Origin: Malacoraja senta
Taxonomy: Eukaryota
DNA length: 64,000 bases
Direction of reading: 5' to 3'
Assembly: GCA_038087875.1 (NCBI GenBank)
Contig: CM075993.1
Location: 3,784,001 to 3,848,000 of the forward strand
Both the position numbers and the translations under genes were made by a program. Shown here piece after piece: positions 430 to 59,910 of this stretch (within the stretch, counting starts at the first letter, position 1; each line of letters starts with the position of its first letter). Below the pieces are notes generated by a model. It searched no databases and was not told the DNA's origin. It worked only from the letters and a program-made list of their open reading frames with translations.

Positions 430-761
430 ACCAATCATAGCCCAGCAGGATTGGACATACCCCCTAACAGACGTAACTATGGGAACCAATGACGCCTCCC
501 CAACGTCTCAAACGTTGCCATGGGTGTTGTCTATGAGCTGAATACACTAAACCCCCTTGCTGGGGTTAACAAATCAAGTTATACGGTTGCTCTGGTGCAG
601 GAAGGGCGGGCGTCTCATCAGCTGGAGGGAAAAGGGCAGAACACATCCTAGAGAGGGGGAACTAGTGGTTAAATTAGAGCTATTACAACTGCAACGGGGA
701 TTGCAGCTCAAAATCCAGAACAGAAGTCCAAAGTAAAGAGGAAACTAACTTCAAACCAACC
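430..761 (+). promoter_or_regulatory. Putative SORD-like promoter/5'UTR
   Basis: CCAAT at 431 and 486, GC box GGGCGG at 604-609, X-box-like GTAACTATGGGAAC at 473-486 and GTTGCCATGG at 514-523, CRE half-site TGACG at 490-494. Confidence 0.45.
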
Positions 762-812
762 ATGTCGCAGGAGAATCTAGCGTTAGTCTTGGCCTGTGGA
801 GAGCTGAAACTG
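762..812 (+). CDS. SORD: SORD-like exon 1 ([17 protein letters not shown])
   Basis: Good Kozak context ccaaccATG; resembles the SORD N-terminus NLSLVVHGPGDLRL; phase-0 donor CTG|gtaatc. Confidence 0.8.
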
Positions 813-3800: not shown

Positions 3801-6800
3801 ATTTCTGGTCGAGACCCCTCTTTGGACTGATGTCAGGGAAGGAGGGGGTAGGACAAAGAAAGAATGTAGGTGGAGACAGTGGGACTAGTGGGAGAACTGG
3901 GAGGGGTTGGGGGGGGGGATGAAGAGAGAGAGAGAGCTACCTGAAGTTAGAGAAGTCAATGTTCATACCGCTGGGGTGTAAACTACCCAAGTGAAATATG
4001 AGGTGCCGTTCCTCCAATTTGCGCTGGGCCTCACTCTGACAATGGAGGAGGCCCAGGACAGGAAGGTCAGATTGGGAATGCGAGGGAGAGTTGAAGTGCT
4101 GAGCCACCGGGAGATCAGTTTGGTTAAGACGGGTGTGTTCAGCGAAACGATTGCCGCGCCTGCGCTTGGTCTCGCCGCTGTTGAGAAGTTGACTCCTGGA
4201 ACAGCAGATGCAGTAGATGAGGTTGGAGGAGAGGTGCAAGTGAACCTCTGCCTCACCTGGAAAGACTGTTTGGGTCCTTGGATGGAGTCGAGGGGGGGGG
4301 GAGGTAAAGAGACAGATGTTGCATCTCCTGCGGTTGCAGGGAAAAGTACCTGGGGAGGGGGGTGGTTTGGGTGGGAAGGGACGAGTTGACCAGGGAGTTA
4401 CGGAGGGATCACTCTCTGCGGGAAGCAGAAAGGGGTGTAGATGGGAAGATATGGCCATTAGTGGGATGCCTTTGGAGGTGGCGAAAATGTTGGAGGATTA
4501 TATGCTGTATATGACGGCTGATGGGGTGGAAGGTGAGGACAAGGGGGACTCTGTCCTTGTTACCAGAGGGGGGAGGGGTGAGTAAGAGCAGAGCTGTGGG
4601 ATATTGAGGAGACCCTAGTGCCTCATCTATAATGGAAGAGGGGAACCCCCGTTCCCTAAAGATTGAGGACATCTCCAATGCCCTGGTATGAAAAACCTTG
4701 TCCTGGGCACAGATCTGGGCATAGACAGAGGAATTGGGAGTGGGGGATAGTCTTTACAAGAAGAAGGGTGGGAAGAAGTATAGTCCAGATAGCTCTGGGA
4801 GTCAGTAGGTTTGTAGATGTCAGTCAATAGTCTGTTTCCTGTGATGGAGACGGTGAGATCTAGAAAAGGTAGGGAGGCGTCGGAGAAGTGAATTGGAGTG
4901 CAGGATGGAAATTAGTGGTGAAGTTGATGAAGTCAGTGAGTTCTGCATGGGTGCAGGAGGTAGCACCAATGCAGTCGTCAATGTAGGGGCAGTAGAGTTC
5001 CTGGGATAGGGCCAGTGTACGCCTGGAACAGAGATTGTTCGACGTACCCTGCAAAGAGGCAGGCATAGCTTGGGCCCATGCGAGTGCCCGTAGCTACGCC
5101 TTGGATCTGGAGGAAGTAGGAGGAGTCGAAGGAGAAGTTGTTAAGGGTAAGGACCAGCTCCGCTAGGCGGAGGAGAGTATTGGTGGACGGAAATTGGCTG
5201 GTTCTGCGGTCGAGGAAGAAACGGTGGGCTTTAAGACCCTCCTGGTGGGGGATGGAGGTGTAGAGTGACTGGACATCCATAGTAAAGATGAGGGAATGGG
5301 GGCCTGGAAAACAGAAGTCATTGAAGGGACGAAGAGCGTGTGAGGTGTCTTGGGCGTAGGTAGGGAGGGATTGGACCAGGGGGGATAGGATGGAGTCGAG
5401 GTATGTGGAAATTAATTCGGTAGGGCATGCACAAGCAGAAACGATGGGTCTGCCAGGACAGTTCATTTTGTGGATTTAGTGGAGAAGATAAAATCGGGCC
5501 GTGCGGGGCTGGGGAACGATAAGTTTGGAGGCTTTAGTGGGCAGAGAGCCGGAAGTGATGAAGTCAGTAATGGTGTGTGATATTAAGGCCTGGTCTGTGG
5601 GGTCATGGTCCAAGGATAAGTAGGAGTAGGAGGAGGAGGTGTCTGAGAGTTGTCGGCTGGCCTCAGTCTGGCAGACGTCAGCGCGCCAGACTACCACGGC
5701 GCCTCCCCTGTCGGCGGGTTTGATTACCAAGTCGGGGTTGCTGCAGAGGGAGCGGAGGGCTGTACGTTCGGGGGGGTTAGAGTAGGTAAGGGGAGTGGAA
5801 AATTTGAGGCGTTCGATGTCCTGCCGGCAGCTGGAAAGTATTATTACCTGGACCCAATTTTTTTAGTGACTTTGATCGATACATTCTAGAGTAATGTCAC
5901 AGAGGCTGCTCTGCTCGAGACGTTAACTTGATCGATTAAAAGACCACCTTAATGAAGACTATGTCCGCATAAGAAGCCCTCAAGCTGCCATGATAGGACT
6001 GTAGATACAATTATTTTAGATTCCTTTGCCAATTCGAGGAGAAAATGAAAAGCTGTGAGATTTGTCTTTGTTTTTAAGGGTCTCCTGCCTTTATGGTTGA
6101 GGGAGAGACACAAGATTTGCTCATCTTTGTGCGTGCTTGGGCTAATGGACTGTTGAAGGAGACTTCTTGACTCCCAAGTGAGACAATGAATTCATGGGCT
6201 TGAGTTCATGTGTAATTAACAGCTGGAATCTTTTTTCAAATAAGTTATTCCAGGAAAAACCTTATCTCTTTCTATAAAGAACTTTTCCTCTCTTCATAGG
6301 AAAAGCGTCCAGTTCCAGAGTTATGCCCTGGTGGTGAGTTTACCTTTCCTATTTAAACAGCACATTGTTCTGTCTAATCCTTGTATTGTGTTTAAGTGTT
6401 GAATCTTAGCGAGAACATTCTATAAAGCTGTAAATTAATCTGGCCTGAAAGAATTATCTCAAAGTCTTTATTCCTTTATGACTGCACACTTGGTTCCTTA
6501 GAATCAAACTGGGATTGCAGAGCAGGAATGAAAACGTATTATGCCATTAAGTTTCCATTTATTGTGTGGAATGCAAGACTTTCAGAGTCACAACACTCCC
6601 CCGATATGTTAATTGATACATTATAGATAGCATTGTCTATCATTGTCTGGCAAGCTGTCTTCCGGCCATTCAGGACATTTTCCACAGGTGGTGCCTGCGG
6701 AAGGCACACAGCATCATCACGGACCACAGCCACCCAGCACACAGACTGTTATTGTCAGGCAGACGATATAGGAGGTAGACAAAAATGCTGGAGAAACTCA

Positions 6801-15800: not shown

Positions 15801-18800
15801 GGAGACGACAGGAGAAAGGGGTTAAGAGGGAAAGATAGATCAGCCATGATTGAATGGCGGAGTAGACTTGATGGGCTGAATGGCCTAATTCTACTCCTAT
15901 TCCCTATGACCTTATAATAGTCATGCCAGCAGTGCTCATGTTCCGCTGTGGACAAGTTCAAAGAAAAGTCTGGCATTTAAGGAAGTTCCTTGAATCTATC
16001 ATTGATTTGTTTGTGTTCTGGCATTCCTTCCATAGATAGGAACATACGATAACTTATTAGGATCTGCTGGATCCCACGACAGAAAGCAAAGAACAAACGA
16101 CACTTAGCTGTGTCTAATTAGTGTGTTTGACCTTGGAGTTGTTATCGAGCTCCTGTGGCTGGACCTTCTCGTGAGTCACCAGCGGTGACAAGCTATATGC
16201 AAACCTTGGGCGTGAAGGCACCCCACTTTGATTAGCATTTTAGATAACAGCTCCAAAATGAGTTCCATCAGATATGCAGCTGAGCAAGGTTGCAAAAGGT
16301 TGCTTTATGAAATCTTTGACATTTCACAATTTATTTTTTATTTTTTGGAAAAACCTGTCTCTCTGCTTCACATTGCACAGTTTTCAAGGTTTTGTGCTTT
16401 TTCATTAGATGTGCTGCTGAAGATTAATTCTGTCGGCATCTGTGGTACCGACGTCCATTTCTGGCTGGAAGGGAAAGTTGGCGATTTTGTCGTTAAGAAG
16501 CCCTTCGTTCTTGGGCATGAAGCCTCAGGGACTGTGGTCAAAGTGTCCTGTGGTGTGAGCCATCTGAAAGCAGGTGAGTTGGCATGGAGTTTCGCATTGC
16601 ACAAGACACTGGGAGAACCTTTTAATTCATAGGAAGAGTTAGCAGTGGAAGAAAAAGCCAACTGATCCTTGCTGGAGATAGACACACAGAGCTGGAGAAA
16701 CTCTGCGGGGACAGGCAGCATCTCTGGAGAGAAGGGAATGGGCGACGTTTCGGGTCGAGACCCTTCTTCAGACTGATGTCAGGGGCAGAGGGAGATACAT
16801 CAAATCAAATCAATCAAATAAACCTTTATTGTCATCTTGCAAGCCACAGTTGTACAGTGCAAAATGAAAAGATGTTTCCCAGGGAATACCGGAGCATCGC
16901 ACATGAAGTTTAAAACATTTCACACATAATAACACTAAAAACAATCCCGTCCCTGATGGAACAGTATAAATAGTTAAAAAGTAGGTAAAAACAACGTTAA
17001 AATACAGTAAAACCAATCATAAACATGTCCGGGGTGGCTGATTTGAGTGGCCAGTGCCAGTTATTGAAGTGGCCAGTGCCAGTTATTGAAGTGGCCAGTG
17101 CCAGTTATTATAGTGTCCGTGCCAAGCCGCAGAATCAGGTGACTGTGAGTACAGAGTGGCTGTCTAGCAGCCTCACAGCATATGTCAGGAAGCTGTTTAG
17201 CAGTCTTGTAGTCCTGGCTTTGATGCTGCGATATCTCTTGCCTGATGGCAGGAGATCCAGGTGTATGTGGAGGGGGTACAGTTTGTCCTTAGCAATTCTC
17301 TGAGCTTTTTTCCGACAGCAGCTCTGGAACAGTTCTTGTACCGAGGGTAGGGAGACGCCAATGATCTTCTCTGCTCCCCTCACTACCCTCTGCAGAGCCT
17401 TCCTGTCCGAGCAGTTGCAGGTGGAGTACCACGTATTTATGCAGTACGTGAGTACAGACTCCACCGTACCCCTGTAGAAAGTCCTGAGGATGTTGGTGGG
17501 GAGTGAGGCCTGTTTTAGTTTCCTCAGGAAGTGCAGTCGCTGATGGGCCCGTTTGACGGTCCCAGTGGTGTTCCTGGACCAGGTGAGGCTGTCTGTAATT
17601 TGCACCCCGAGGAACTTTATGCTCTCCACTCTCTCCACTGTGGCGCCACTGATGTTAAGGGGTGCATGCTTTGGCTGCGCCCTCCTGAAGTCGACAACCA
17701 TCTCCTTTGTTTTGTCGACATTTAATTCTAGATTATTTTTGCCGCACCAGTCCACTAGGTGTTTTACTTCATCCCTGTACATTGATTCATCATCTCCGCT
17801 GATGAGTCCCACCACTGTTGTGTCATCCGCGAATTTTATGATCTTATTGTCCCTGAATCTGGCCGCACAATCATGTGTGAGCAATGTGAACAACAGCGGG
17901 CTGAGCACACAGCCTTGAGGGGAGCCGGTGCTCAGCGTGATCGAGCCTGAAGTGTTCTTGCCCACACGGACTGACTGCGGTCTCTCTGTCAGAAAGTCCA
18001 AGATCCAGTGACACAGGGTGGTGTTGAGGCCCAGCAGGGTTAGTTTCTCCACAAGTCTCTGTGGGATGATGGTGTTGAACGCTGAGCTGAAGTCAATGTA
18101 CAGGATTCTGGCGTATGTGTTTCTGTTTTCCAGATGCGTGAGCACTGTGTGCAGCGTGGTAGAGATGGCATCCTCTGTAGAACGGTTGGGGCGATAGGCA
18201 AACTGGAGGGGGTCTAACGATGAGGGGAGGCTGGCAGTAATGTGGGGTTTCACCAGGCGTTCAAAACACTTCATTATTATTGGGGTCAGGGCGACAGGGC
18301 GGTAGTCATTTAGGCAGGCAACAACTGGTTTCTTCGCTATGGGTATTATTGTAGACGTTTTGAGGCATGTGGGGACAATGGCTTGACTGAGGGAGATGTT
18401 ATAGATGTCTGTAAGCACATATGCTAACTCCTCAGCACATTCCTTAAGCACACGTCCTGGGATGTTATCGGGTCCGACTGCTTTCCACGGGTTGACCTTA
18501 GACAGGATTCTCCATGTGTCCATCGGGTCTATGGTCAGGACTGGCTGGTCGGTTTGTAAGCAGGGGCTGGCTCTCCCCTTGGGTGTGGTGTTTGCTGCAT
18601 CAAAACGAGCGAAGAAGTTCAGTTCATCTGGGAGAGAAGAATCCGTGTCAGTTACCTGCTGCCTTGCCTTGTACCCCGTCAGTGTTTGGATTCCCTTCCA
18701 CATCCTCCTGGTGTCTCCTGTGTCATAGACAAGGAAGTGTAGGGTGTGAAAATAGGACAAGGAAATGGAGATCAAGGATCATTGTTAGCTGGGAGAAGCT

Positions 18801-21800
18801 AACAACAATGCAAACAGAGATAAAATGTAGGCGGGGACAGTAAGAGTTCCTTGCTGGGACTCTACAGGAGCCTTCCAATCCAGCACACTCTCTCCTCGCT
18901 CATCTTTATTTAACTTATCACTTACTAATCATTTCACCTGCTGCTTGTGATAATGGAGACACAAGGAACTACAAATTGGACTCTGAAGAATGGTGTCAAC
19001 CCAAAATGTCACCTATCCATTCCCCCACTGCCTGATCTGCTGAGTTGCTCCAACACTTTGTGTTTTACGTGCGATAGTGGGTTCAGTTTCTCTCTAGTTT
19101 TTCTCATGTTTACTACTGTACATTTAGATAATAGATAATAGGAGTGGTGCAGGAGTAGGCCATTCGGCCCTTCGAGCCAGCACCGTCATATAAATGGAAT
19201 GGAAAGCAGATACATAGTCTCTAAAAGTCCCATTTTCCAAACCCCATCATTATTTTAAAAGGCCCCCCTCCCAATTGTCCCTTAGGTACATGGATAGTAA
19301 AGGATTAGAGGGTTATGGGCCGAATACGGGCAGGTGGGACAAACGTAGATGTGGACAAGTTAGGCCAAAGGGACTATATGTTTCTGCGCTGTATGAGTCT
19401 ATGATTCTTTGCCTCCAACATGGAACATAGAGCAGTACACAGCGCAAGAGCATGCCCTGCGGCTCACAATATCTGTAACACGATGCCAAGACCTACTCTG
19501 CACATAGTCCATATCCGTCCATTATTCCCTGCCGAAAAGCCTCCCAAATGCCACCGTCGTGTCTTCCTCCACCACCACCCTTGTCTTGTTCTTCTTGATC
19601 TTCTTGATATCTGGTCCCTGCAACGAACCCACCATTATCCAATTATCCCGGTCCTTGCAGGTATTTTACAGGAGCCATCCATCCACCCCAGCACATCATA
19701 TCCAGTTGTTTTCCTCTCTCCTCCCCCATCTTTAGTTAACTTCCCACTTACTATTCATTTCACCTTCTGCTTGTGATAATGGAGACACATGGAACTACAA
19801 ATTGGACTCCCTAATTATGCATAAGTGAGTCATTCACACCAGGGAAAGTACGTGTGCATACAGGCAGTGTTCTCGTGCGCGATGTTTTGTGCCTAAAGTG
19901 TCTTGTTTTTCCCTCTGCCACAGGCGACAAGGTTTCCATTGAGCCTGGGGTCCCCAGAGAGAATGACGATTTTGTTAGAATTGGACGTTACAACCTGTCC
20001 CCAACCAGCTTCACAAGTGGTATTCCTCCCGATGATGGTACCATGTGTCGATTCTATGCCCACAAAGCCAACTACTGCTACAAGTTAGTATTCTGCCACA
20101 TCCTGTTAAAATGCTGTTAGGTTTAAGGCGAGAGGGGAAAGGTTTAATTGGAATCCAGGAAAAATGAGTAGGTTAACATATCATGAGTGTTTCATGGCAC
20201 TGGGCCAGTACTCGCTGGAGTTTAGAAGAATGAGGGGGACCTCATTGAAACGTACAGAATAGTGAAAGGCTTGGATAGATGTGGAGAGGATGTTTCCACT
20301 AGTGGGAGAGTCTGGGACTAGAGATCATAACCTCAGAATTAAAGGACGCTCATTTATTTAGGAAAGAGTTTCGATGCAAAACATACCTAGCTAATAAAGT
20401 ATTATTGTGATTGTGAGATTCACCACCCTCTGGTTAAAGAAATTCCTCCTCATCTCCTTACTAAAGGTACATCCTTTTTTTCCGAGCTGTGCCCTCTAGT
20501 CCTAGACCCTCCCACTTAGTGGAAACATCCTCTCCGCATCCACTCTACCCTGGCCTTTCATTTATCGGTGTGCGTTTCAAAGAGTCTCCCCTTCATCCTT
20601 CTAAACTCCAGCGAGTACAGGCCCGGTGCTGTCAAAAGTTCAAATTGTCGCTCGTGCTTATTGTCCATGTGTAACTATCGTTTTCAATGTGTACAAGTGC
20701 AGCCACTGTGCATTTTTAAAAATGTCCAAACTAAACTTTATTCAGAATTGAAAATAGATACAAAACAAAAAAACGGTGCAAAAACTCTCCTCATATTCTC
20801 AGTTGTCTATACATTTAATAGTGTCATACCCAGGGGAAGATGGTGTTGAAGAAGCTTATGAGAGGAAAAAGACCGTGTACTCTGTACTGGCAACTGAAGC
20901 TGCCCACAATGGCTGGAGAAGACCAAGATTTCCCCTGTCGAAGTGGGATGCAGGGGATTTGTTGCTACATCTATGACCAGGCTATTAAAGAAAATGGGGG
21001 TGAGGGGGGGTCGCTCCCTCCAACAAGCAATCAAGTCATTATCAAATTGTGCAGAAAAAAAGCAGCAATTCGATTTGGATCAAAAGGAGAGACAGCAATT
21101 GGGCTGCAAGATGAAGACAGGATGGTATGGAATTGAGGGGGGGGGGTGTAACTGGGATGCCAGGTATCACCGTTGAGCCCTCTGGAGATGTTGTGGGCTT
21201 ATCAATGAAACTTCAACGTTGATGACTCCGATGACGTACCTCTACCCTACCTTTCACCACTCCAATCCCACTGCAAAAAGCCGACTTATTACAGGGATTG
21301 AAACATCAAGTCCTATTAGCTCTAATACTACTACTAAGTAGTTTTAACACCTGTCTTTAAAACTAAACCCACTTGCCATTCATGTGCCCCCCTGGGGTGA
21401 GTGATATCCCCTCCCTTGTTTGAGTGGTGTCCCCAGCGGACTCTACCCCTCAGTGTCCATCGGCAGAAGGACCCTAGACTGTGGCCCTCCCCCACCGAGC
21501 CTTGGCGTTGGCTGCACCGAGCTCCAGGGTGTTCCTCAGCACGTACTCCTGCAGTCTGGAGCGGGCCAGTCGGCAACATTCCCTGGTGGACATCTCGCTG
21601 TGCTGGGAGGGAGTTCAAAGTTCGGGCAGACCAACAAGCATCTCACTAAGTTGGTGACCTTCCAGCACCACTCGATGTCCATCTCCGCATGTGTTCCTGG
21701 GGAATAGTCTGTAAATTGTCACAGAGTTGTAGCCCCACAGTGCAGACGGGTAAGGAGTACCCAGTTACAATGGTGGGAAGACTGAGATCTATCTGTTAGA

Positions 21801-27800: not shown

Positions 27801-30800
27801 GTGTTTTTTCCAAGTGTGGCAACATTTCTTTTGTCACCGCTGGATTTTGAAATGTTCCAAAATCTTTTGGCGACCCTGAAATGACGCCGGCAGTCGCCGA
27901 AAAAAAAAAAACGCCAAGTGGGACAGGCCCTTAAGAGGGAACCGCACCACAGGATCCATCGAGTCCTTGTCCCGCCGCGCTAATTGTTGTCTGCTCTCTG
28001 TTTTAGACTCCCCGAATGTGTAACGTTAGAAGAGGGTGCCTTAGTTGAGCCGCTTTGCGTCGCACTGCATGCCTGCCACAGAGGACGAGTAAAAGTGGGT
28101 CAGAAAGTTTTCATCTGCGGAGCTGGTAAGTGCCCGTTTTCGCCAGTACCATCTCCGAAACCTTCGCCACGAATGACATGCCTCGTTCGGTAAAGACGAT
28201 GAATAATCCTACCCTGTACATTACGGAGCAGACGCTTAACCAGCAAATAACAGGGAGAAATCTCCAATGCAATCACGTTCTTCTGACCCGTTCCCGCTTC
28301 GGCAAAATCAGTTCACAGTGAGATTTGTTACACTGCATTTGCCAATTAATTCCTACTTAATCATCACCAAATGCAATGGAATGCGTATGAGCTCTGAGGG
28401 CTAAAGGAATCAAGGGATATGGGGGATATTATCTGAATGGTGGCCGATTAGGAAAAGGGGAGATGCAACGAGACCTGGGTGTCATGGTACACCAGTCATT
28501 GAAAGTAGGCATACAGGTGCAGCAGGCAGTGAAGAAGGCGAATGGTATGTTAGCATTCATAGCAAAAGGATTTGAGTATAGGAGCAGGGAGGTTCTACTG
28601 CAGTTGTACAGGGTCTTGGTGAGACCACACCTGGAGTATTGCGTACAGTTTTGGTCTCCTAATCTGAGGAAAGACATGCTTGCCATGGGAGTACAGAGAA
28701 GGTTCACCAGACTGATTCCTGGGATGGCAGGACTTTCATATGAAGAAAGACTGGATAGACTCGGCTTGTACACGCTAGAATTTAGAAGATTGAGGGGGGA
28801 TCTTATAGAAACGTACAAAATTATTAAGGGGTTGGACAGGCTAGATGCAGGAAGATTGTTCCCGATGTTGGGGAAGTCCAGAACAAGGGGTCACATGTTA
28901 AGGATAAGGGGGAAATCCTTTAGGACCGAGATGAGGAAAACATTTTTCACACAGAGAGTGGTGAATCTCTGGAACTCTCTGCCACAGAAGGTAGTTGAGG
29001 CCAGTTCATTGGCTATATTTAAGAGGGAGTTAGATGTGGCCCTTGTGGCTAAAGGGATCGGGGTATGGAGAGAAAGCAGGTACAGGATACTGAGTTGGGT
29101 GATCAGCCATGATCATATTGAATGGCGGTGCAGGCTCGAAGGGCCGAATGGCCTACTCCTGCACCTATTTTCTATGTTTCTATGTTTCTATTTCCTTGGA
29201 CCATCGTGCTCTCCGAAGCTGGTTCCGTTGTCGGTCCGTACGACGAATAAACGTTGACGACTCCCTGACTTGAACCTTGGCCGTGGTTCAGCTCAGTTTG
29301 TCGGGCACTCACAACCCAGGCTGCACAAGGTAGCACTGAGGATCAGTCGCCAGGAAGCCTCTGTCTACAGTCATGCACTCGTGTGGACAGCCCCATTGCA
29401 ACCACTGCAACCTTGCATTCCATTGCATATGGTGATGATTGCACACATGTGCTGCTTCAGGAAGCCTTAAAATATCCAGGTTAATGCTGTCCATTTACAT
29501 GCATCCATTTCCAAATGCGATCGGAAGAAGGGTCCTGATCAGTAACATCACCGATCCATGTTCTCCAGAGGTGCCGCCTGGCCCACTGAGTTACTCCAGC
29601 ACTTGATTCCTTTTGTATTTCTATAACCTCTCCAGGAGATATGGAGTCGATATCCATATGATCGAGAGAGAAATGATATAAATGCAAAAGGAGACACAAA
29701 ATGCTGGAGTAACTCAGTAACTCAGTGGGCCAGGCAGGCAGCACCTCCGGAGAACATGGATGGGTGACGTTACTGATCAGGACCCTTCTTCACCCCGCAT
29801 TTGGAAATGGGTGTAAAGTGGGAAGTAAAACTCCATGGCTTTCTAACAAATGTTTTCTTTAATCTGTTAAGGACCAATTGGCCTGATGACTCTTCTTGCT
29901 TGCAAGGCCATAGGAGTGACTCTGACTGTAGTATGTGGTAAGTTTTTACAGAATACATTCCGAACCTGAATGAGTTATTTTTCCATTGCAATTGGTTGCG
30001 TTTTTCTTGTAGTAACCGTGACCTCTCTCTTCCACTGGAGGACCCCGAGGTGCGTGATGGGCTCCCGTGCTCTATTTGTTAGCCCTGTCGGAAGTATTTC
30101 CGGGTATTCCCGGTTCAGAGCCCCATCACTAATTCCACCCACAGCAGCATACCAGGGTAGCTGATTGTCAAGGGACAACTTGGTTTGGGGAAACAACTGC
30201 NNNNNNNNNNNNNNNNNNNNNNNNNNNNNNNNNNNNNNNNNNNNNNNNNNNNNNNNNNNNNNNNNNNNNNNNNNNNNNNNNNNNNNNNNNNNNNNNNNNN
30301 NNNNNNNNNNNNNNNNNNNNNNNNNNNNNNNNNNNNNNNNNNNNNNNNNNNNNNNNNNNNNNNNNNNNNNNNNNNNNNNNNNNNNNNNNNNNNNNNNNNN
30401 GCTCTCTCCCTTTCTCTTCTTTTTAATTGAAAACAGAAAGTGCTGCTATTTTAGACAGCAGAGCATTCGGCAACCAGGACCAGAGAGGTCAGTTTGGGAC
30501 ATTTTGGTTGTGTTGTGAAAGTAAGGGACATTATACCCGGCTGTGGGAAGATCTCTCTGCTCTCCTTGACATTCCAACACCAGAGACTTTACACAGCTAA
30601 CCGAGCGCATGTTGAACTTTTCTTTGAAGAACACCAGGTCCAGCAACGCAACCCATTCCCATCAGAGGTCTGAAGTGTCGGCGCAGTGGAGAAAAATACC
30701 TAATGATGCACCTCTGTCTAAGAAGGAACTGCAGATGCTGGAAAAATCAAAGGTAGACAAAAATGTTGGCGAAACTCAGTGAGTGAGGCAGCATCTATGG

Positions 30801-33800
30801 AGCCAAGGAATAGGTGACGTTTCGGGTCTCGACCCGAAACGTCACCTATTCCTTCGCTCCATAGATGCTGCCTCACCCACTGAGTTTCTCCAGCATTTTT
30901 GTCTACCTAAAGGGCCTGTCCCACATGGGCGTCATTTACGCTACATCATTTACACGTCATGGCGTGCATTACGCGCGCATGGCGCGTGGTGAGGCGTGGT
31001 GGTGTAGACAGTGATGCACGGTCCCACGCAGCGCCCCAGGATTTGGGGATTCGCAAAATCTTTAATGATTATTTAAAGGGTCAGAATGGTTCAGCACGGG
31101 AACCTGACTAATGCTCGGGCTAAAAAATGGATGAAATGCTATACTCTGAAATGTACGAATATATCTCGAATGAAGTTTTTTATTTTAATAAATTTTTCCA
31201 CTCTTCTTTAACTATCTTTCTCTTTTGTTTTGGTTTTTTTTGTTTTGTGTTTCTTGTTTTTTGTTAAAAAAAATTTAAATAATTTTTTTTTTTTTCTCTC
31301 TTTTTCTTCTCTTTCTTTTCTTTCTTTACTTCATCTATCTTTTTAGTTCTATCTAGTTTAAAATAAAAAAAATAAAAAGGTAAAAGGTATTGGAGACAAT
31401 GTAATAATAATTGATAATATTATCAATTTAAAAATGTAAGACTGTAATGATGTTAATAGATTATGTACTTATCTCCAATAAAAAATATTTTCAAAAAAAA
31501 AAATCTTCGCGCGCCACCTGCGTGACGCGCCAATGGCACCCAAGTGGAACAAGCCCTTAATGACACACGCCTGGTGTCTTAGCCACATTAGAGTCCCACG
31601 TTGTTTTCCTACATTAGTTTCACTTTACCCCATTAACAAATGCATCATGTTTATTAACAACTAAATTAATAAGAACTGTTTAAGAAATAAATGGGAATTG
31701 GATTTACAAGTGCTTCCCCAAGATGGTTGGTGGGACAGTTATCGTAGAACATAGAATGGTGCAGTACAAGAAAATGGCCACAATGTCTGCGCTGTACATG
31801 GTGCCAAGACCATCTCTTATCAACCCGCACATAACCCATATCCCCTCATTCCCTGCATATGATAGGGTCATACATTGTGGAAACAGGCCCTTGCCGTCCA
31901 AATTGCCCCATCTACACTGGTCTAACCTACCTCCCTATCTCTTCATATCCCTATCCCTGTCCCTAGTCTCCTAAATGCCACTATTGCATTTGCCTCTGCC
32001 ACCATCTCCAGTCACACAAACCACCCTCTGTGTAAAAAAAACCTTGCCCCAGGACATCTCCTTTGTACTTTGTCTTCCAATTTGACAGCAAGTCCCGACA
32101 GGAGATGTCAGGGCAGGTGACCAGAAGCTTAGGTTGTGAGAAGTATTTTTAACGGAAGGAGGAAGAATGGTAGAATTAGAACATAGAACAGGGGACAGTA
32201 CAGCACAGGAACAGGCCCTTCGGCCCACAATGTTTGTGCCGGACATGATGCCTAGCTGAATTGATCTCATCGGCCTGTACCTAATCCATATCCCTCTATA
32301 ATAATAATAATAATAATAATAGATTTTATTTATATAGCGCTTTTCAGGACTATTGTCCTACATTTCCACATGCCTACCCAAAAGTCCCAAACGCCACTAT
32401 TGTATCTGCCTCAACCACCACTGGCAAAATGCGTTCCAGGCCCCTACCACTCTCTGTGTAAATAATCCTGCCGTACACTTCTCCGTTCAACTTTCCCCCT
32501 CTCACTTTATAGCTATGTCCTCCAGTGTTGGACTCCTCCACCCTGGGACAAAGGGTTCTGACCGTCTACCCAATGTATGTCTCTGATAATTCAATGTACT
32601 TGCATGGGGACGGCAGGGAGTGATGTGTGGGAACCAGTCATTGAGGAACGGGATGTTCTCACAACCTTATTCCCAACGGAGATACGGAAGGATGTATTTC
32701 TTAATCTCATTGCCCTCTTGCAGATTTGTGTCAGGACCGTTTGGAAAAGGCAAAATGCTTGGGAGCCACAGTTGTCTTGAAAGTGGATAAGTGTACGTGT
32801 CCCATGGAGTTGGCCCAGAAAGTAAAGTCCTCTCTCTGCGCCATGCCTGACGTGTGCATTGACTGCACTGGGGCTGATACCTGCATCCAGGCTGGTGTCT
32901 ACGTAAGTCTCAACTCAAGAGGGTCTTTCAATCTGTGCAACCGTCGGGCAAGACCTAAAACCTTGGGCAAAAGACGCAAAAAGTCAAGTCAAGTCAAGTC
33001 ACTTTTATTTCTATAGCACATTTAAAAAACAACTCTCGTTGGCCAAAGTGCTTTACATTGGTGGAGATACTAACGTTATACAACAGTGGTTCATAGATTA
33101 AGTAGAGCTGGAGGGAGCCAGCATCCGTGGAGGGAAATGTTGACAGGCAACGCTTCGGGTCCTTTCCCTGCCTGTCACAAGTTCACAAGTTCACTAGTTA
33201 TAGGAGTAGAATTAGGCCATTCAGCCCATCATCTCTACTCCGCCATTCAATCATGGCTGATCTATCTCTCCCTCCTAACCCCATTCTCCTGCCGTCTCCC
33301 CCCGTAAGCCCTGACACCCGTACTAATCAAGAATCTGTCAATCTCCACTTTAAATATCCTGAATTTTTTTCCCACATCCCTGAGTTAATCTGTCATTTTG
33401 TTACCCTCTTCCCAGGCACTGGAAATAAACACCCCTTCCTAATGTAGTAGACAATAGACAATAGACAATAGGTGCAGGAGTAGGCCATTCGGCCCTTCGA
33501 GCCAGCACCGCCATTCAATGTGATCATGGCTGATCATCCACAATCCTGCCTTCCCCCCATATCCCCTGACTCCGCTATTTTTAAGAGCCCTATCTAGCTC
33601 TCTCTTGAAAGCATCCAGAGAACCGGCCTCCACCGCCCGCTGAGGCAGAGAATTCCACAGTAATCGGCTGTGACTTGTGTTGTAGTGATCACACACCAAT
33701 AAATGAGAAGGATCAGAGTTTTTGCCTCACACATCGCACACAGCAACATCTTGTATTGGCTTTCTGCTGACTGGTTAGCACGCAACAAAAGCTTTTCACT

Positions 33801-36800
33801 GCGTTGGTACACGTGACAATAAACTAAACTGAACTGATTCCTGGCAACGCCATCCTTTGCTCAACATCGCTTCTATGACCGTGCTATTGAGACAATACAG
33901 GTCTTTGCACATTTTGGATGACTTAACTTACCCCTACAGTAGTAACGATTAATATTAAAGTAAAGGAGAGTTTAGTTTGGAGATACAGCGTTGGAACAGG
34001 CCCTTCGGCCCACTGAGTCCATGCCAACACTAGCACTATCCAACACACATTAAGGACAATTTACCATTTTTACCAAAGCCAGTTAGCCTACAAACCTGTA
34101 CGTCTTTGGAGTGTTGGAGGAAACGGGAAAACCCATGCAGCCATGGGGAGAACGTGCGAACCCCTTACAGACAGCACCCCCCCCCCCCCCCCCCCCCCCC
34201 CCCCGTGATCAGGGTCCAACCCGAGAATTGAACTACTCAGACTTGTTCTTTTCATTGGGACAACCAAACTGTGCTGCTTTGATGGGCTCAATTTCTCAAT
34301 CAAATGGAACCTCTCTGTGTGTTTGATGTCAGCTGAGAGCATCAGGAAGAAATGGTACAGGGAGGGACTCCTCTGTCAGTTACTGAACGCTAGTGTTTTA
34401 ACTGCAGCAACTAATCAGTTAAGCTTCAGCACACTCTCTCCTCACCAACCACCTCCCCACACTCAGCTCTGGGCACCAGGTTTCAGATAAGGCTGTCAAA
34501 GGGCACAGAGGGGAGACTTAGGCAATTACACTGGGGTTGGAGGATTTCAGTTTGGTAGAATAAATGGGAAAGACTGCTTGTGTAGGAAGGAACTGCAGAT
34601 GCGGGTTTACTCTGAAGACAGACACAAAATGCTGGAGTAACTCAGCGGGGGACAGGCAAGCATCTCTGGATAGAAGGAATGGGTGATGTTTCGGGTCGGG
34701 GCCCTTGTTCAGACTTGCTTGTTTCCTTAAGCCATCTTTCCCCATGTACCTTACAAAACATGGGGAAAGATGGCTTAAGGAAACAAGGGAGTTAGATGTG
34801 GCCCTTGTGGCTAAAGGGATCAGGGGGTATGGAGAAGAAGGCAGGTACGGGATACTGAGTTGGATGATCAGCCATGATCATATCGAATGGCGGTGCAGGC
34901 TCGAAGGGCCGAATGGCCTACTCCTGCACCTATTTTCTATGTATCTATGTATCTAAAACTGAAATCCCCCATCGCCAGTATAATTGCCTAAGTCTCCTCT
35001 CTGCCGTTCGAAAGTCTGTCTGAAAACGTGGAAACTAAGGGGTGGGGGGTGGGGGGGGAGAGAAGGAGCTGATTAGTGCCAGTGACAAATCATAATTGAT
35101 AAATTATTATGTATTAAAATCATACATAAATAAACAATAATTTCTGCAGTTAAAACATGAGAATTCCTCCCTATTTCAGTCTTCCTGATGCTTTCGACCA
35201 ACATCAATCATACCTAGAGGCTCCATTTAATTGGAAAACTTTTTTCAGTCCTTCAATGAACACTTTGGTTGACCCAATGACAAGTAACACACACTCCTAT
35301 GTAGTTTAATGAAGAACTGCAGATGCTGGAAAAATCTAAGGTAGACAAAAAAATGCTGAGGAACTCAGCGGGTGAGGCAGCATCTAAATTTGTCCTCCGA
35401 TGTAGTTGAACTTTCTTTTACTTTAATATTAAGTGTTAGGGTTGGTGGCCTTGAGTTCCCCAGTTGATGATCCCAGAAGGAATGGTTCCTTCATCATTTT
35501 AGGGTCTAAATCCCAGAACTAACTGCATTCACCAGTTGCAAAAATATGGCTCACCCCTCCTTCTCAAAGCCAATTACAGGTGGGATTTTAATGCTGAAAA
35601 AAATGAGTGTTATTTTATCTAAAGAGTCCATATGAGGAAGGGTCCCCAGCCGAAATGTCACCTATTTGGGCGGCACAGTGGTGCAGCGGTAGAGTTGCTG
35701 TCTTACAGTGCCGGGTTTGAACCTGCCTACGGGTGCTTGTCTGTACGGAGTTTGTACCTTCTCCCCGAGACCTGCGTGGGTTTTTCTCCAAGAACTTCGG
35801 TTTCCTCCCACACTCCAAACATGTACAGGTTTGTAGGTTAATCAGCTTGGTATAAATGTAAAAAATTGTCCCTTGTGTGGGATAGTGTCAGTGGGCCTGC
35901 ATCTCCAAACGAAACTAAACAGAACTATCCATGTCCTCCAGAGATGCTGCCTGACCCGCTGAGTGTTAGTGTAGTTTAGTGTAGTTTAGTTTAGATACAC
36001 AGCGTGCAACAGGCCCTTCAGCCCACCGAGTCTGCACCGGCCAGCGAACCCCTACACATTAAAGGGCCTGTCCCACTTGCCGATTTTTCCGGCGACTGCC
36101 TGCGTCATATCAGGGTCGGCAAAAGATTTTGAACGTTTCAAAATCCAGCCGCGACAAAAAAAATGTTGTGACACTTGAAAAATCACCGCGCGTCAGTCAA
36201 TGTGCCACGTCATCACGCCGTAACACGCCACAAATTTTTAGGTGACCTGATACGTCAGTCAATGATGCCGGCAGTCGCCAAAAAAATCGACAAGTGGGGC
36301 AGGCCCTTAACACTCGTGACAATTTTCACCAATTTACACTTATACCAAGCCAATTAACCTACAAACCTGTACATCTTTGTTATTCCCACACTTTTGTATC
36401 CTTTTTTATACATGAATTAAACTGGTTACTACACATTGAGTTGGGTACACGTTCGATTTGTGGTATGAAGAGGTACTATTCTTAACATTGAACTTTTACT
36501 GTAATGCAGCACAAATGGCAATATATCATCTTGGCTCAGCGTTTCTAACAGTATTTTGTCTCTAAAACACAGGCTGTCAAACCTGGTGGAATTGTTGTAC
36601 TGGTTGGCCTGCAATGTAACACATCAAATGTCCCTGTGCTGCATGCAACAGTCAGAGAGGTGGATATCCGCGGGAGCTTTAAATACACAAACACGTAAGT
36701 ATTTTGTTTATAGACAATAGACAATAGGTGCAGGAGTAGGCCATTCGGCCCTTCGAGCCAGCACCGCCATTCATTGTGATCATGGCTGATCATCCACAAT

Positions 36801-39800: not shown

Positions 39801-40957
39801 TGATTCCTCCCCCCATATCCCTTGATTCCGTTAGCCCTAACAGCTGAATCTAACTCCCTCTTGAAAACATCCAGTGAATCGGCCTCCACTGCCTTCTGCG
39901 GCAGAGAATTCCACAGATTCACAACTCTCTGGGTGAAAACGTTTTTCCTCGTCTCGGTCCTAAATGGGGGCCTACTCCTTATTCTTAAACTGTGTGACTA
40001 AGAGTTCAAGAAGGAACTGCTGCAGATGCTGGAAAATCGAAGGTAGACAAAAGTGCTGGAGAAACTCAGAGGGTGCAGCAGCATCTATGGAGCGAAGGAA
40101 ATAGGCAACGTTTCGGCCCGAAACCCTTCTTCTATGGAGCGAAGGAAATAGGCAACGTTTCGGCCCGAAACCCTTCTTCTATGGAGCAAAGGAAATAGGC
40201 AACGTTTCGTCCCGAAACCCTTCTTCTATGGAGCAAAGGAAATAGGCAACGTTTCGGCCCAAAACCCTTCTTCTATGGAGCAAAGGAAATAGGCAACGTT
40301 TCGTCCCGAAACCCTTCTTCTATGGAGCGAAGGAAATAGGCAACGTTTCGGCCCAAAACCCTTCTTCTATGGAGCGAAGGAAATAGGCAACGTTTCGTCC
40401 CGAAACCCTTCTTCTATGGAGCAAAGGAAATAGGCAACGTTTCGGTCCAAAACCCTTCTTCTATGGAGCAAAGGAAATAGGCAACGTTTCGTCCCGAAAC
40501 GTTGCCTATTTCCTTCGCTCCATAGATGCTGCTGTACCTGCTGAGTATCTCCAGGACTTTTGTCTATCTTAAACTATGACCCCTTGGTTCTGGACTCCCC
40601 CAACATCGGGAACATTTACCCCTGCATTCTAGCCTGTCCAATCCCAGCGGAATTTTACACGCTGTTTAACTCTCTCTCTCTCTTTCCCGTTTCAGGTGGC
40701 CAACTGCAATCGCCCTGATAGCTTCCAAGAAGGTGGATGTGAAGCCTCTGATCACACACCGCTTCCCGCTGGAGCAAGCCCCAGAAGCATTCGAGTGCGC
40801 TAAGAAAGGCTCCGGGATCAAAATCCTTATTAACTGCGAACAGCAGCAGCAACAGCAGTGCCCATCCCTCTGCCCACAGCAGTGCCAACCACAGCAGTGC
40901 CCACCGCAACAAAACCAATGCCAGACAAAGCAGTGCCCTCAGCACAGCTTCTTCTGA
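762..40957 (+). CDS. SORD: Sorbitol dehydrogenase-like (MDR zinc alcohol dehydrogenase family), 9 coding exons, 385 aa; Cys-rich variant with Q/C/P-rich C-terminal extension
   Basis: join(762..812,6300..6333,16409..16573,19924..20083,28007..28125,29872..29937,32724..32902,36573..36694,40696..40957) = 1158 nt. All introns are GT-AG, phases are consistent and there are no internal stops. Motifs: [37 protein letters not shown]. Confidence 0.93.
1853..2356. repeat. About 99-bp tandem repeat, about 5 copies, chimeric LINE-derived unit
   Basis: GATTGATGGCT.TGGGGAAGTAGCTATTCC...AGAGAGAGTTAGATAGAGCTCTGGGGGCTAGTG recurs at 1853, 1951, 2050, 2149, 2260. Confidence 0.9.
2896..2923 (-). ncRNA. Minimal hammerhead-ribozyme-like motif in a Penelope pseudo-LTR copy
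   Basis: Reverse complement reads CUGAAGA-A-GGGU CUCG ACCC-GAAAC-GUC: hammerhead core boxes, stem II and a palindromic ACGU helix III remnant. Helix I pairing is weak. Confidence 0.5.
3695..5835 (-). mobile_element. Penelope-like retroelement (RT + GIY-YIG endonuclease), frameshifted and 5'-truncated, with 3' pseudo-LTR
   Basis: ORF pieces [94 protein letters not shown]. Confidence 0.9.
6300..6333 (+). CDS. SORD: SORD-like exon 2 ([12 protein letters not shown])
   Basis: Pyrimidine tract plus tag acceptor, 34 nt, donor G|gtgagt; matches the small ENYPIPEPGPN exon of SORD. Confidence 0.88.
8578..8788. mobile_element. PIF/Harbinger-type MITE
   Basis: TIRs AGGGCCTGTCCCACTTGGGTG...CACCCAAGTGGGACAGGCCCT in TTA/TAA context. 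Relatives sharing the termini lie at about 7071-7387, 14901-15230, 26295-27080, 27690-27931, 30909-31558, 36062-36308, 48448-48974, 54352-54676. Confidence 0.7.
10706..11744. mobile_element. Non-autonomous TIR element, Kolobok-like
   Basis: Imperfect TIRs AGCAATGTTACAAAA / TTTTGTAACATACCT; interrupts an L1 3' fragment. Confidence 0.5.
12012..12552 (-). mobile_element. CR1-type LINE 3' fragment inserted in an L1 fragment
   Basis: [18 protein letters not shown]...WNSLP; (CATAGAAA)n tail. Confidence 0.85.
12860..13255. mobile_element. hAT (Charlie-type) non-autonomous DNA transposon
   Basis: TIRs CAGCGTTTCT...AGAAACGCTG flanked by a perfect 8-bp TSD CTCTAGAT. Confidence 0.85.
16409..16573 (+). 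CDS. SORD: SORD-like exon 3 (zinc ligands Cys, His, Glu)
   Basis: 165 nt; [18 protein letters not shown]...[16 protein letters not shown] boundaries. Confidence 0.96.
16801..18726 (-). mobile_element. Rex1/Babar-type LINE, 5'-truncated, RT ORF open for over 500 codons
   Basis: ORF 17135..18775 with [56 protein letters not shown]-type repeat tail near 16801; inserted into a Penelope-derived element. Confidence 0.88.
19924..20083 (+). CDS. SORD: SORD-like exon 4
   Basis: 160 nt; [16 protein letters not shown]...GRYNLSP...[11 protein letters not shown]; cag acceptor, gttagt donor. Confidence 0.96.
20815..21200 (+). mobile_element. Hero/R2-superfamily non-LTR retrotransposon 3' fragment (restriction-like endonuclease)
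   Basis: Across frames: [36 protein letters not shown], the RLE motif typical of Hero elements. Confidence 0.6.
24300..24780 (+). mobile_element. RTE/RTE-X-like LINE 3' fragment
   Basis: [37 protein letters not shown] zinc-knuckle-like end; (GAA)n tail. Confidence 0.55.
25195..26018 (-). mobile_element. CR1-type LINE 3' fragment
   Basis: Same ORF2 C-terminal motifs; (CATAGATA)n tail seen on +. Confidence 0.9.
26295..27080. mobile_element. Longer Harbinger-type non-autonomous element inserted in a Tx1-like fragment
   Basis: TGGGCCTGTCCCACTTAG...CTAAGTGGGACAGGCCCA termini. Confidence 0.65.
28007..28125 (+). CDS. SORD: SORD-like exon 5
   Basis: 119 nt; [23 protein letters not shown]...ICGAG; tttag acceptor, gtaagt donor. 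Confidence 0.96.
28427..29190 (+). mobile_element. CR1-type LINE 3' fragment
   Basis: [13 protein letters not shown]...RRLRGDLIE...[14 protein letters not shown]; 3' tail (TTTCTATG)n. Confidence 0.9.
29872..29937 (+). CDS. SORD: SORD-like exon 6
   Basis: 66 nt; [22 protein letters not shown]; aag acceptor, gtaagt donor. Confidence 0.93.
30201..30400. other. Assembly gap (200 N)
   Basis: N run in SORD-like intron 6. Confidence 1.
32724..32902 (+). CDS. SORD: SORD-like exon 7
   Basis: 179 nt; [14 protein letters not shown]...[15 protein letters not shown]; cag acceptor, gtaagt donor. Confidence 0.95.
36573..36694 (+). CDS. SORD: SORD-like exon 8
   Basis: 122 nt; [13 protein letters not shown]...[14 protein letters not shown]; cag acceptor, gtaagt donor. 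Confidence 0.95.
36711..37305 (-). mobile_element. CR1-type LINE 3' fragment
   Basis: [13 protein letters not shown]...WNSLP; (TAGACAA)n tail ending about 16 nt from the exon 8 donor. Confidence 0.85.
40084..40500. repeat. 47-bp tandem array (about 9 copies) inside a Penelope-derived foldback element
   Basis: Unit TCTATGGAGCRAAGGAAATAGGCAACGTTTCGKYCCRAAACCCTTCT starting at 40084, 40131, 40178 ... 40460. Confidence 0.95.
40696..40957 (+). CDS. SORD: SORD-like exon 9 (terminal, includes Q/C/P-rich tail)
   Basis: Long pyrimidine tract plus cag; [26 protein letters not shown]...[15 protein letters not shown]...HSFF TGA. Confidence 0.95.
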
Positions 40958-41059
40958 TAGTGGCTCTTACGCTTTGACATTCTTGACCACTGAATAAGTC
41001 ACCCTTCAGATCAGGATTTAAACACCGTGCTGTAATTTCCCAGACAACAGGCCTTCTGC

Positions 41060-41065
41060 AATAAA
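41060..41065 (+). terminator. Polyadenylation signal of SORD-like gene
   Basis: AATAAA about 100 nt after the stop codon, in unique sequence just before the repeats resume. Confidence 0.6.
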
Positions 41066-41220
41066 CATTGAGTATAACCACTGCAAGTCTCTGGTCTATT
41101 TACGTAGCGTCACTCCCTTGGTTCGAATCCCATTAGGGCGGATGTGCTGCAGCTGACAGAGCCAGGGACCAGGGTTCCAACCTGACCTCCGGCGCTTTCT
41201 GCCGTGGAGTTTGCATGCTC

Positions 41221-52200: not shown

Positions 52201-55200
52201 ATATTTTTACAATAATCTCTGTAGTTGTTAATACTCAACTGGATCCCGATCCTAAATTAGATAATATTGGGCATGTCAGAACAATATCTAAAACTTACAA
52301 CAAACCAAAGAAATTTCCTTGACTACAGTATAGTAATTGGGAAAAAAATTAATATTAAAATTTTGGAAAAACCCCGCAACCCCCACAATATGGATGTGGA
52401 TTATGGAGATGTCGGAGATCTTACATTTGGAAAAAATTGGATATGTCTTAATTGACAAACCAGAATTATTTGCTAAAATATGGTCTCCATTTATAGATTA
52501 TCTGAAGGGGTAGACTGGGCCGGCACGGAGGCCTGACTGAAACCTGAACCAGGACTGGATGAATAGTTACGTTTTCTGACCTATGGACCTATCTCCTAAG
52601 TTGTATTATTGATAGTTTATCTTACTTTTCTAATTTCTTTTCTTTATTTCTTTATTTTTATTATCTATAAATATAAATAAATAATTAGAGGCAAGGTTAA
52701 TATGTAACCGATAAATGAGGACCCCAGCTACTTTGGTAACTGGGTACCCGGAACCCTGGAAACTTAATATGTAATCGTTACACAAAGTTTGTAATGGGTT
52801 GAACTATGATATGCAGATACCTGTAATAAAAAATTAAAATAAAAAAAAATTAAAAAAAATTAACATTTAAAAAAAATTAAAAAAATTAAAATAAAAAATA
52901 ATAAAAGACGAACAAAAACATATGAATAAAAAGAAAAAGATTTGTTCTACAAAATAAGAATAAGGAGTAAGCCATTTAGAACAGAGACGAGGAAACACTT
53001 TTTCTCACAGAGAGTGGTGAGTCTGTGGAATTCTCTGCCTCAGAGGGCGGTGGAGGCCGGTTCTCTGGATGCTTTCAAGAGAGAGCTAGATAGGGCTCTT
53101 AAAAATAGCAGAGTCAGGGGATATGGGGAGAAGGCAGGAACGGGGGTACTGATTGGGGATGATCAGCCAATGATCACATTGAATGGTGGTGCTGGCTCGA
53201 AGGGCCGATTGGCCTAATCCTGCACCTATTGTCTATTGTCTATTGTCTATTGTCTAAAATTTGGATTCATTCAGAAGGCCGCACTTAATGGCCAAGAAGG
53301 CCGCAGGTTCCCCACCCCTGGTGTAGGGTATCCTTTCATGTTAGTGGGCAAGGAACATTGCTTGTGTGATGCCCCCAGGGTGCATGCCCTCACTGGGAAG
53401 CCTTGGTGGATGGTTCTGGCCCAAACAATTTGTTCTGGCACAGACGTATCTCTTTCGTTCTCAAGCTCAACCCATAACACAGATTGGATTGTACCACGCA
53501 GATCGTCCGGTTGCTCACCAGTCGCCAGTGTTAGCCAGAAGGAAACGCTCAGGCTCGTCCTCAGTGTCATTGGTCCAAACTGAATAATGCATCGAGGGAC
53601 ATTGCGGGTGGTGGCAAACGAGATGACTCCAAAGATCATGAACGCAGACGTGACCAAGGTCATGTAGCCTCCGTAGACAATTGTTGACATGCAGAAGAGG
53701 ATATTGGAGATGATCCAGGCGCAGAAAGCCACCCTGTTGCGGAAAGAACAAAAGATAAACTTAGAGGTAGACAAAAATGCTGGAGAAACTCAGCGGATGA
53801 GGCAGCATCTATGGAGCGAAGGAATAGGTGACGTTTCGGGCCGAAACCCTACTTCTGACTGAACCAGTGGGTTTTTGTAATGGCACATGTTGGCACACTG
53901 TACCGGCACTTCTATGAAGTTAAAAATCATTATTTTGCTTTCTGGCCATGGTAGATGTATATTAATTTATTCATCGTGAATACCGGCTTTTCCACAATAA
54001 AAGCACTGATTTTAATAAAGGCAAAAACATCACCAGCATCTGCAGTTCCTTGTGTGCAACATTTAACTTCTTCACTGCGGAATCTCCGCAAGGTATATCC
54101 ACTATGCATGTGGCAGGCTTTGCACTCCTTCCACCTCTCCTTCCAGTTTTATCTCCCTTCGGCCCATGCTGACCAAGGACGCACTATGGTGCCTAGAATC
54201 CCTATCCATGTTCCCCAGAGATACTGCCTGACCCACTGAGTTACTCCAGCATTGTGTGCCTTATTTTGTAAACCAGTATCTGCAGTTCCTTGTGTCTACT
54301 ATTGTATCACTCTCTCTTCATTTGGAAGAACCCACACTGGCCTTGATTCTAATGAGCCCTGTCCCACTTTTGCGCGACTTTCGTCACCCGTCTTAGGTCG
54401 CTGCAGGTCGCCGAAAATTTCCAACATGTTGAAAGTCCAGCGGCAACCAAGAAGACGCTATGACTCTTTGGGCGACTGAGGAGACGACTCACGACCATAC
54501 AGGCGACACCCTGGCGACATGTCGCGGGGTGAAGCCTATAGTAGTCGCCCAAAGAGTCGTACGTAGTTCCGGTCACCGCTGGATTTTCAACATGTTGAAA
54601 ATTTTCGGAGACCTGCAACGACCTATGACGGGTGCCAGCAGTCGCCGAAAAAGTCGCATAAGTGGGACAGGCCCATTAGTGGTTTGAAAGCGCTGGAAAA
54701 TGATTTTATATTAACAAACTCTTCTGGTCTTTCATTGTCCTATTTGAAATGCAATGATGAGTCTTGCTTACCACATCATAGCTGTTGCATAATGTCCAGA
54801 AAAACCGGTACTGTGCATTGAGGAGGCAAGGGGCTTTTGAAGTAAACTTCTCAGCAATATACAAAATTGGATTTGGAAGCCCTCGTTCAAGTCCTTTATG
54901 ACTTTGCTCATCGTAATTTAACTCAAATTTCCACTGGAAGTTTTCATTGTAGTTGATGGTTTCATTCAGCTGGTTCACGGGAAGACCTGTGAACAAATGG
55001 CATTAGGGGGCCACATTAATCATAGGCGGTCGGCAAAAGCAACACCATTCACAAAGAAATCTGGCTGGAAAACGGCATGGTATAATAGGTAAAACGCAAG
55101 TTACTGGAGGAACTCAATGGGTCAGGCAGCATCATTTGGGGAGTGTGTAGGAAGAAATAGACATCTTTCCCTGTTGTACCTTGTCTTCCGAAGAGTCCAC

Positions 55201-59492: not shown

Positions 59493-59522
59493 TATGTGTG
59501 TGTGTGTGTGTGTGTGTGTCTA

Positions 59523-59560
<38 letters not shown>

Positions 59561-59708
59561 TGTGTGTGTGTCTGTGTGTGTCTATGTGTGTGTGTGTGTG
59601 TGTGTCTGTGTGTGTGTGTGTGTGTATGTGTGTGTGTCTATGTGTGTCTGTGTGTGTGTGTGTCTGTGTGTGTATGTGTGGGTCTATGTGTGTGTGTGTC
59701 TATGTGTG

Positions 59709-59748
<40 letters not shown>

Positions 59749-59756
59749 TATCTGTG

Positions 59757-59787
<31 letters not shown>

Positions 59788-59910
59788 CTATGTGTGTGTG
59801 TGTGTGTGTGTGTTTGTGTGTGTCTATGTGTGTGTGTGTGTGTGTGTGTGTCTATCTGTGTGTATGTGTGTGTGTGTGTGTGTGTCTATGTGTGTGTGTG
59901 TGTGTGTGTG

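Follow-up and report, generated by a model that had tools for sequence, protein, structure and literature searches.

The window is the whole stretch of 64,000 nucleotides from Malacoraja senta that was analysed. It contains a gene of the sorbitol dehydrogenase (SORD) family on the forward strand, which we designate D. The gene model begins with exon 1 (762..812, ATG at 762) and exon 2 (6300..6333). Exon 3 (16409..16573) retains the zinc ligands C44, H69 and E70 and carries S46T and Y50F (human chain numbering), the substrate loop 118-121 is remodelled in exon 4 (19924..20083), and E155 is retained in exon 5 (28007..28125). After exon 6 (29872..29937), exon 7 (32724..32902) retains D203 and R208 and holds six gained cysteines, exon 8 (36573..36694) carries R298K, and the coding part of exon 9, including the stop, occupies 40696..40957. 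The nine exons have AG/GT ends and join into 1158 nt, encoding 385 amino acids with zero internal stops. Exon 7 is 179 nt long in D and in paralog A, 176 nt in paralog C, and 182 nt in paralog B.

The last SORD exon continues in frame beyond the usual SORD end for 39 amino acids (40838..40954), followed by TGA at 40955-40957. This tail contains 17 Q, 6 C, and 6 P. A preliminary description of this DNA had claimed such a coding tail, and its frame, composition, and stop were verified in the sequence. The tail consists of a variable poly-Q stretch (12 CAG and 5 CAA codons), a fixed CPSLC, a variable middle, and a fixed CQT[KR]QCPQH[SN]FF end. The same description built the tail from QQCP-like units; this fits the middle, which is repeat-like (15-bp unit x2.1, 40874-40905), but not the two ends, which are fixed, non-repetitive motifs. 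The 3'UTR follows at 40958..41067, with AATAAA at 41060-41065, and its structure is not notable (z 0.67).

Tandem arrays are also present in the window: 47 bp x 8.9 just 5' of the last exon (40084-40500), 99 bp x 5 in intron 1 of D (1853-2356), and a 630-base TG microsatellite at 59495-60124. A LINE-type element in intron 3 carries a 522-aa reverse-transcriptase open reading frame (17135-18703, minus strand; RVT_1, E 5e-35).

SORD is usually a single-copy gene. The M. senta genome holds five SORD-type last exons (A, B, C, D, and E), all on contig C17. Paralog A (about 3.70-3.72 Mb) has a different Q/C tail. Paralog B (3.72-3.74 Mb) is untailed and ends in CDSSDQNP, as in mammalian SORD. Paralog C (3744494-3764407) and paralog E (3935027-3946077, minus strand, beyond DUOX) are also untailed. 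The canonical untailed SORD copy of the cluster lies 88 kb upstream of D. What had been described as SORD with a Q/C/P tail is indeed a SORD-family enzyme with a gained, selected tail, but the gene is a paralog and the canonical copy is retained in the five-gene cluster. Exons 7-9 of paralog E were found and exons 1-6 were not found; an N gap adjoins at 3946308. Paralog E has pocket changes of its own (C118, H274, and M296).

The interval from D to E holds a DUOXA exon (window 53274-53789, minus strand, E 2e-18) and, on the opposite strand, peroxidase-domain exons of a DUOX-like gene (plus strand, C17:3853585-3873021). The position of SORD beside DUOX fits the neighbourhood found in mammals. 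A synteny search for TERB2 gave no match, and its control was equally silent. Other peroxidase genes were observed in the genome: a second one at C17:2.30-2.33 Mb, haem-peroxidase genes in which one exon is very long at C1:65553400-65554785 and C3525:144285-145670, and a tandem cluster at C6:9.75-10.31 Mb. In Chiloscyllium punctatum, the locus tags of A (15748) and D (15746) leave space for B alone between them, which suggests the loss of C.

Conservation of the tail across elasmobranchs

A tree of 78 proteins was built by a quick search with SH-aLRT support only, P0006 (a second C. punctatum model) and most bony-fish hits being left out. The tree showed five elasmobranch clades. The D clade comprised 20 rows with a support of 100, and these represented 18 named species, which belong to the skates, rays, and sawfish and to the hexanchiform, sawshark, horn, carpet, mackerel, and ground sharks. 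The sawshark D model (among P0006, P0154, P0240, and P0138) seems to be a fusion with part of an adjacent paralog. A branch with a support of 99 split A and D from every untailed row.

The tail was present in all 20 D rows, with poly-Q, CPSLC, a variable middle, and the CQT[KR]QCPQH[SN]FF end, and its length was 32-40 aa. The end was HSFF in 18 rows and HNFF in 2, and the length of the middle varied. Absence of the tail in close relatives, named beforehand as a refuting result, was thus not what we found. The same anchored tail in 20/20 orthologous rows argues against chance, although the pattern was defined after the rows had been viewed. The tail of paralog A had the pattern C-x3-C-x2-L-x3-C-x3-C in 21/21 rows, and its C and L residues would share one helical face if the spacing reflects a helix. 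In M. senta this tail (C17:3716751-3716894) has two CxxxC motifs flanking LL on that face, as in all 21 rows, and may form a disulfide-ringed coiled coil.

Among 254 proteins, 47 had 12 or more Q+C within their final 45 residues, all of them A or D, and the other 207 reached at most 7. The tail was absent from every non-elasmobranch SORD compared in this set. In the chimaera Callorhinchus, one SORD gene was seen, which was untailed, and neither A nor D occurred among the best 120 of 551 and the best 120 of 288 matches, where any chimaera A or D should have ranked high. Since both sharks and batoids carry the tails of A and D, these tails are older than the shark-batoid split, which dates to roughly 270-300 million years. 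No D-type protein of Scyliorhinus was found among the matches listed in protein searches.

The identity of D bodies between batoids and sharks was 82-87% (4 pairs), as high as that of canonical B (80-86%, 3 pairs), which indicates that D is not decaying. The values for A, C, and E were 79-85%, 75-77%, and 81-85%, respectively. P0002, the predicted product of a public contig of 916 bases, spans exons 6-9 and the tail. A contig holding exons 6-9 within 916 bases must be spliced; at least one skate thus transcribes D and splices the transcript. The preliminary description had also allowed that transcripts might stop near INC, and this spliced contig, which encodes the tail, speaks against it. In the public run X2, two contigs matched 40644-41210 with 0 differing letters (the DNA is unspliced, its depth is 2.1, and it may come from the same sample as the assembly), and this agreement argues against an assembly slip in the tail. 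Contigs of run X1 left 40664-41143 uncovered, which proves nothing. The D tail is the genuine coding end of an intact gene.

Catalytic core, cysteines, and origin of the tailed exon

GroES-like and Rossmann domains (Pfam ADH_N and ADH_zinc_N) run along the full length of the D ortholog P0134. We take the substrate pocket of SORD to consist of S46, Y50, F118, T121, R298, and Y299, with F59 and F297 added from the literature. Numbering follows the human SORD chain and was checked on 1PL6; residue roles are partly taken from PMC2731777. Of the catalytic core, the zinc residues C44, H69, and E70, together with H49, were retained in 18/18 D rows with data and the zinc residue E155 in 19/19. Of the NAD-type fold, the three Rossmann glycines (GxGxxG) and R208 were retained in 19/19 rows and D203 in 19/20.

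The pocket is different. S46 was replaced by T in 14/18 D rows, Y50 by F in 17/18, and A120 by G in 18/18. Position 118 was never F (T in 9, M in 5, Q in 3, and A in 1), position 121 was F, I, L, or M instead of T, and R298 was K in 11/19. F59 drifted (F in 7, W in 5, M in 4, and I and Y in 1 each), and F297 also varied. In the window protein, five of the eight pocket residues are changed (46, 50, 118, 121, and 298), so it lacks the pocket specific for sorbitol. PMC2731777 reports that changes at the equivalents of SDH F59 and F297 shift polyol preference in fungal relatives. The untailed C has a D-like pocket (T46, F50, G120, aliphatic 121, and K298). The pockets of A and B are largely canonical, with the exceptions in B of F50 in 4/10 rows and S or A at 119. 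The four paralogs thus combine the two traits in every way: A canonical and tailed, B canonical and untailed, C altered and untailed, and D altered and tailed. Independent variation of pocket and tail is expected of a localisation module and not of a part of catalysis. Paralog C, with its altered pocket and many spliced skate contigs, is possibly an abundant polyol dehydrogenase.

D is also rich in cysteine outside the tail. In full-length rows, the body contained 21-26 cysteines in D (13 rows), 14-20 in A (14), 9-11 in B (8), and 10-12 in C (5), compared with 14 in E, 17 in the chimaera, and 10-13 in bony vertebrates (16 rows). Twelve cysteine columns were present in at least 14/16 D rows and in at most 1/17 bony rows. 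The residues that gave way to the gained cysteines are P, G, S, N, A, E, or T; most of these are polar or small, and the cysteines are probably exposed on the surface. The body counts by paralog indicate that the gain of the tail was accompanied by a gain of cysteines.

The 3'UTRs of D and A are homologous. They align as far as the poly(A) signal with a score of 61, compared with 19.7 +/- 3.2 for shuffles (0/1000 reached it), and 73 of the 97 columns in the alignment match exactly, a value inflated by local alignment. The 3'UTRs of B, C, and E gave background scores in this comparison, and of 2826 tiles of the region two scored as high, both from D itself. From this homology, the tailed last exon has a single origin and later diverged into two tails. 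Fourfold sites between the paralogs are near saturation (33-50% identity), and retention of the 3'UTR in spite of this points to shared post-transcriptional control.

Split trees placed D with C in the N-terminal half (0.986) and with A in the C-terminal half (0.995). AU tests gave p values of 0.053 and 0.061 against A+D in exons 3-5, and 0.014 and 0.11 against C+D in exons 7-9, with groups chosen after the tree had been seen; the fourfold sites were too saturated to show a mosaic. Exon exchange among neighbouring paralogs is a likely, though unproven, part of the origin of D, and convergence of the C and D pockets is possible. Whichever origin applies, the cluster holds each pocket type both tailed and untailed.

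Hints on expression came from public contigs of skates, whose clusters mix species so that members are not independent. Spliced contigs made up 13/15 for B among the matches listed, 9/12 for C, and 2/3 for A, compared with 0/9 plus one spliced singleton for D and 0/5 for E. This is a crude hint that the expression of D is restricted. Against it, scarcity tracks the tail poorly, as the untailed E has 0/5 yet the tailed A has 2/3. An X-box-like (RFX) 10-mer (514..523, plus strand) lies 248 bases 5' of the D ATG; it is a weak, post hoc match to the consensus, with 1 match against 0.20 expected in the window, and for the full consensus 31 of 847 background windows score equally well. The promoters of A, C, and D shared repeats and nothing else in our comparison. 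A term search gave no match in the readable supplements of PMC10707392, PMC13188829, PMC12768270, and PMC11406177, and the readable supplement text of PMC11083954 lacks even the word "dehydrogenase", so that its silence is uninformative.

Proposed function of the tailed enzyme and comparison with known systems

The retained core, the changed pocket, and a flexible tail gained along with thiols of the body suggest an enzyme with another substrate range that is attached to something. We give about even weight to the reading that D is an elasmobranch-specific zinc/NAD polyol dehydrogenase, still able to catalyse but with an altered specificity, held by a thiol-cross-linked anchor in a restricted, terminally differentiating cell type. 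SORD is a homotetramer. If D assembles in the same way, four tails and many surface thiols would be on display. These thiols would be oxidised to disulfides as the cell differentiates, tying D into an insoluble scaffold. A zinc-bound stage possibly precedes the disulfides, and glutamine cross-links are possibly added. Anchored D would supply NADH and ketose locally, and the soluble role would be left to the untailed B and C. The transglutaminase part of the preliminary proposal finds no support, since the sole tail lysine is arginine in 10/10 shark rows. Against the anchoring reading, SDH of mammals gets to the fibrous sheath although it has no tail, and the failure to see D in Scyliorhinus means that it may be dispensable in some sharks.

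As to the site within this anchoring reading, our estimates are judgement and not data. A spermatid or sperm flagellum comes first, at slightly under an even chance. A stratified epithelium is unlikely, and the lens or cornea and any other site are each, and equally, improbable. Conserved 3'UTRs suit delayed translation in spermatids. Sperm leads because of this, the fibrous-sheath SDH, the accessory columns, and the weak X-box. PMC3398308 lists SDH among the enzymes of the mammalian fibrous sheath, and PMC11856307 describes two accessory columns in elasmobranch flagella. The egg capsule, another proposed site, is unlikely: from residue 4, the N-terminus already aligns with strand one of cytosolic SORD, and by this alignment no space is left for a signal peptide. 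A bolder version, which we hold to be unlikely, is that the tailed pair A and D polymerises through disulfides into a load-bearing, energy-supplying flagellar part, such as the accessory longitudinal columns, the two-by-two set having come from duplication and probable exon exchange. If true, elasmobranchs would have arrived on their own at the strategy of the mammalian fibrous sheath, and protein components would be known for these columns.

The foremost alternative, though an improbable one, is that D is soluble and that a membrane or scaffold holds it non-covalently, through S-palmitoylated cysteines or through its C-terminal S-F-F as a class I PDZ ligand. The near-invariant HSFF end, kept in 18/20 rows while the middle varies in length, fits this idea, as an invariant end on a variable spacer is typical of a terminal binding motif. 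However, HNFF in the other 2 rows breaks the S/T at -2, the sister paralog A has no such end, and about 12 gained cysteines across the body would be left unexplained.

Next in order, and also improbable, is recruitment of D as a structural protein, an enzyme-crystallin or filler that some cell type, in the lens, the cornea, or elsewhere, contains in very large amounts and whose catalytic activity is incidental or has been lost. Pocket drift at F59 and 118, the high sulphur content of D, and the precedent of zeta crystallin, an MDR-family crystallin, would suit it. The zinc and NAD residues are all retained, however, and the altered pocket is common to the untailed C. A catshark eye study (PMC11979771) counts 16 alpha, beta, or gamma crystallins among its top 50 eye genes, its main text does not mention sorbitol, and no D was seen in that genus.

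A role as a metal or thiol buffer follows these and is doubtful: tails and surface cysteines would bind Zn or Cu or absorb oxidation, protecting or regulating a soluble enzyme. The six cysteines of the D tail and the CxxxC pairs on one helix face of the A tail in 21/21 rows favour buffering, but the cysteine spacing of the D tail middle differs among species, and profile and sequence searches matched no metal-binding family. Neutral read-through, an assembly artefact, or a decaying duplicate is very improbable: the 12 CAG and 5 CAA codons of poly-Q are slippage-prone and length-variable and several database D models are mis-built at the N-terminus, but the splice sites and frame are intact, the fixed motifs occur in 20/20 rows, the spliced public contig encodes the tail, and the 3'UTR is conserved with paralog A.

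The cluster and its tails are real, ancient, and apparently undescribed. Databases label D orthologs automatically as "sorbitol dehydrogenase-like", and full-text literature held no description of the cluster or tails among the matches listed, subscription journals being mostly outside its coverage. A cluster of five genes retained in both sharks and rays, in which a new pocket has appeared beside two different Cys-rich tails, points to an unrecognised elasmobranch polyol metabolism. D would be a clean case of an enzyme acquiring an anchoring module, and the paired design offers built-in controls (C versus D, B versus A), so that the roles of tail and pocket are directly testable. If the site is sperm, the result bears on how threatened species fuel and store their sperm; an epithelial or lens site would make D a new structural recruit.

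GAPDHS-type sperm enzymes consist of a housekeeping fold with a Pro/Cys extension fixed to the flagellar scaffold. GAPDHS, ODF1, SMCP, and GPX4 are an analogy only, as no sequence likeness to D was found and the extension of D is C-terminal. The D tail shares with SPRR/LCE proteins of the epidermal differentiation complex the Q/C/P composition and QQC-P units, which we take to be characteristic of them. The resemblance to SPRR and SMCP noted in the preliminary description holds for composition but does not extend to homology, with no Pfam, profile, or Atlas match. Unlike SPRR/LCE genes, the tail lies inside the last exon of an enzyme at the SORD-DUOX locus and has one lysine, which is not conserved. 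Searches with the tail, a 39-aa low-complexity query of low power, gave 0 Pfam families and no Atlas match; against 1.84 billion representatives there were 0 matches, in a search that missed even known orthologs. Membership in SPRR/LCE was ruled against for want of a homology match in these low-power tests. Within their own genome, the A and D tails each match themselves alone, and these searches gave no sign of a wider tail family.

The fungal polyol dehydrogenases (7Y9P, 3M6I) belong to the same family, and the positions F59 and F297 vary in D. D nevertheless arose inside vertebrate SORD, and its substrate is not readable from the fungal enzymes. The closest known system is vertebrate SORD (EC 1.1.1.14; PDB 1PL6, 3QE3), with a full-length match of E 2e-140 for the 97%-identical little-skate ortholog. 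D shares with it ADH_N/ADH_zinc_N, the zinc and NAD residues, and the DUOXA/DUOX neighbours. It differs in its pocket (S46T, Y50F, F118T/M/Q, A120G, and T121F/I/L, with R298K in 11/19 rows), in having about twice the cysteines, in its 32-40-aa tail, and in being one of five paralogs. On the sequence evidence, we regard D as a descendant of vertebrate SORD at the DUOX locus and a co-ortholog among five.
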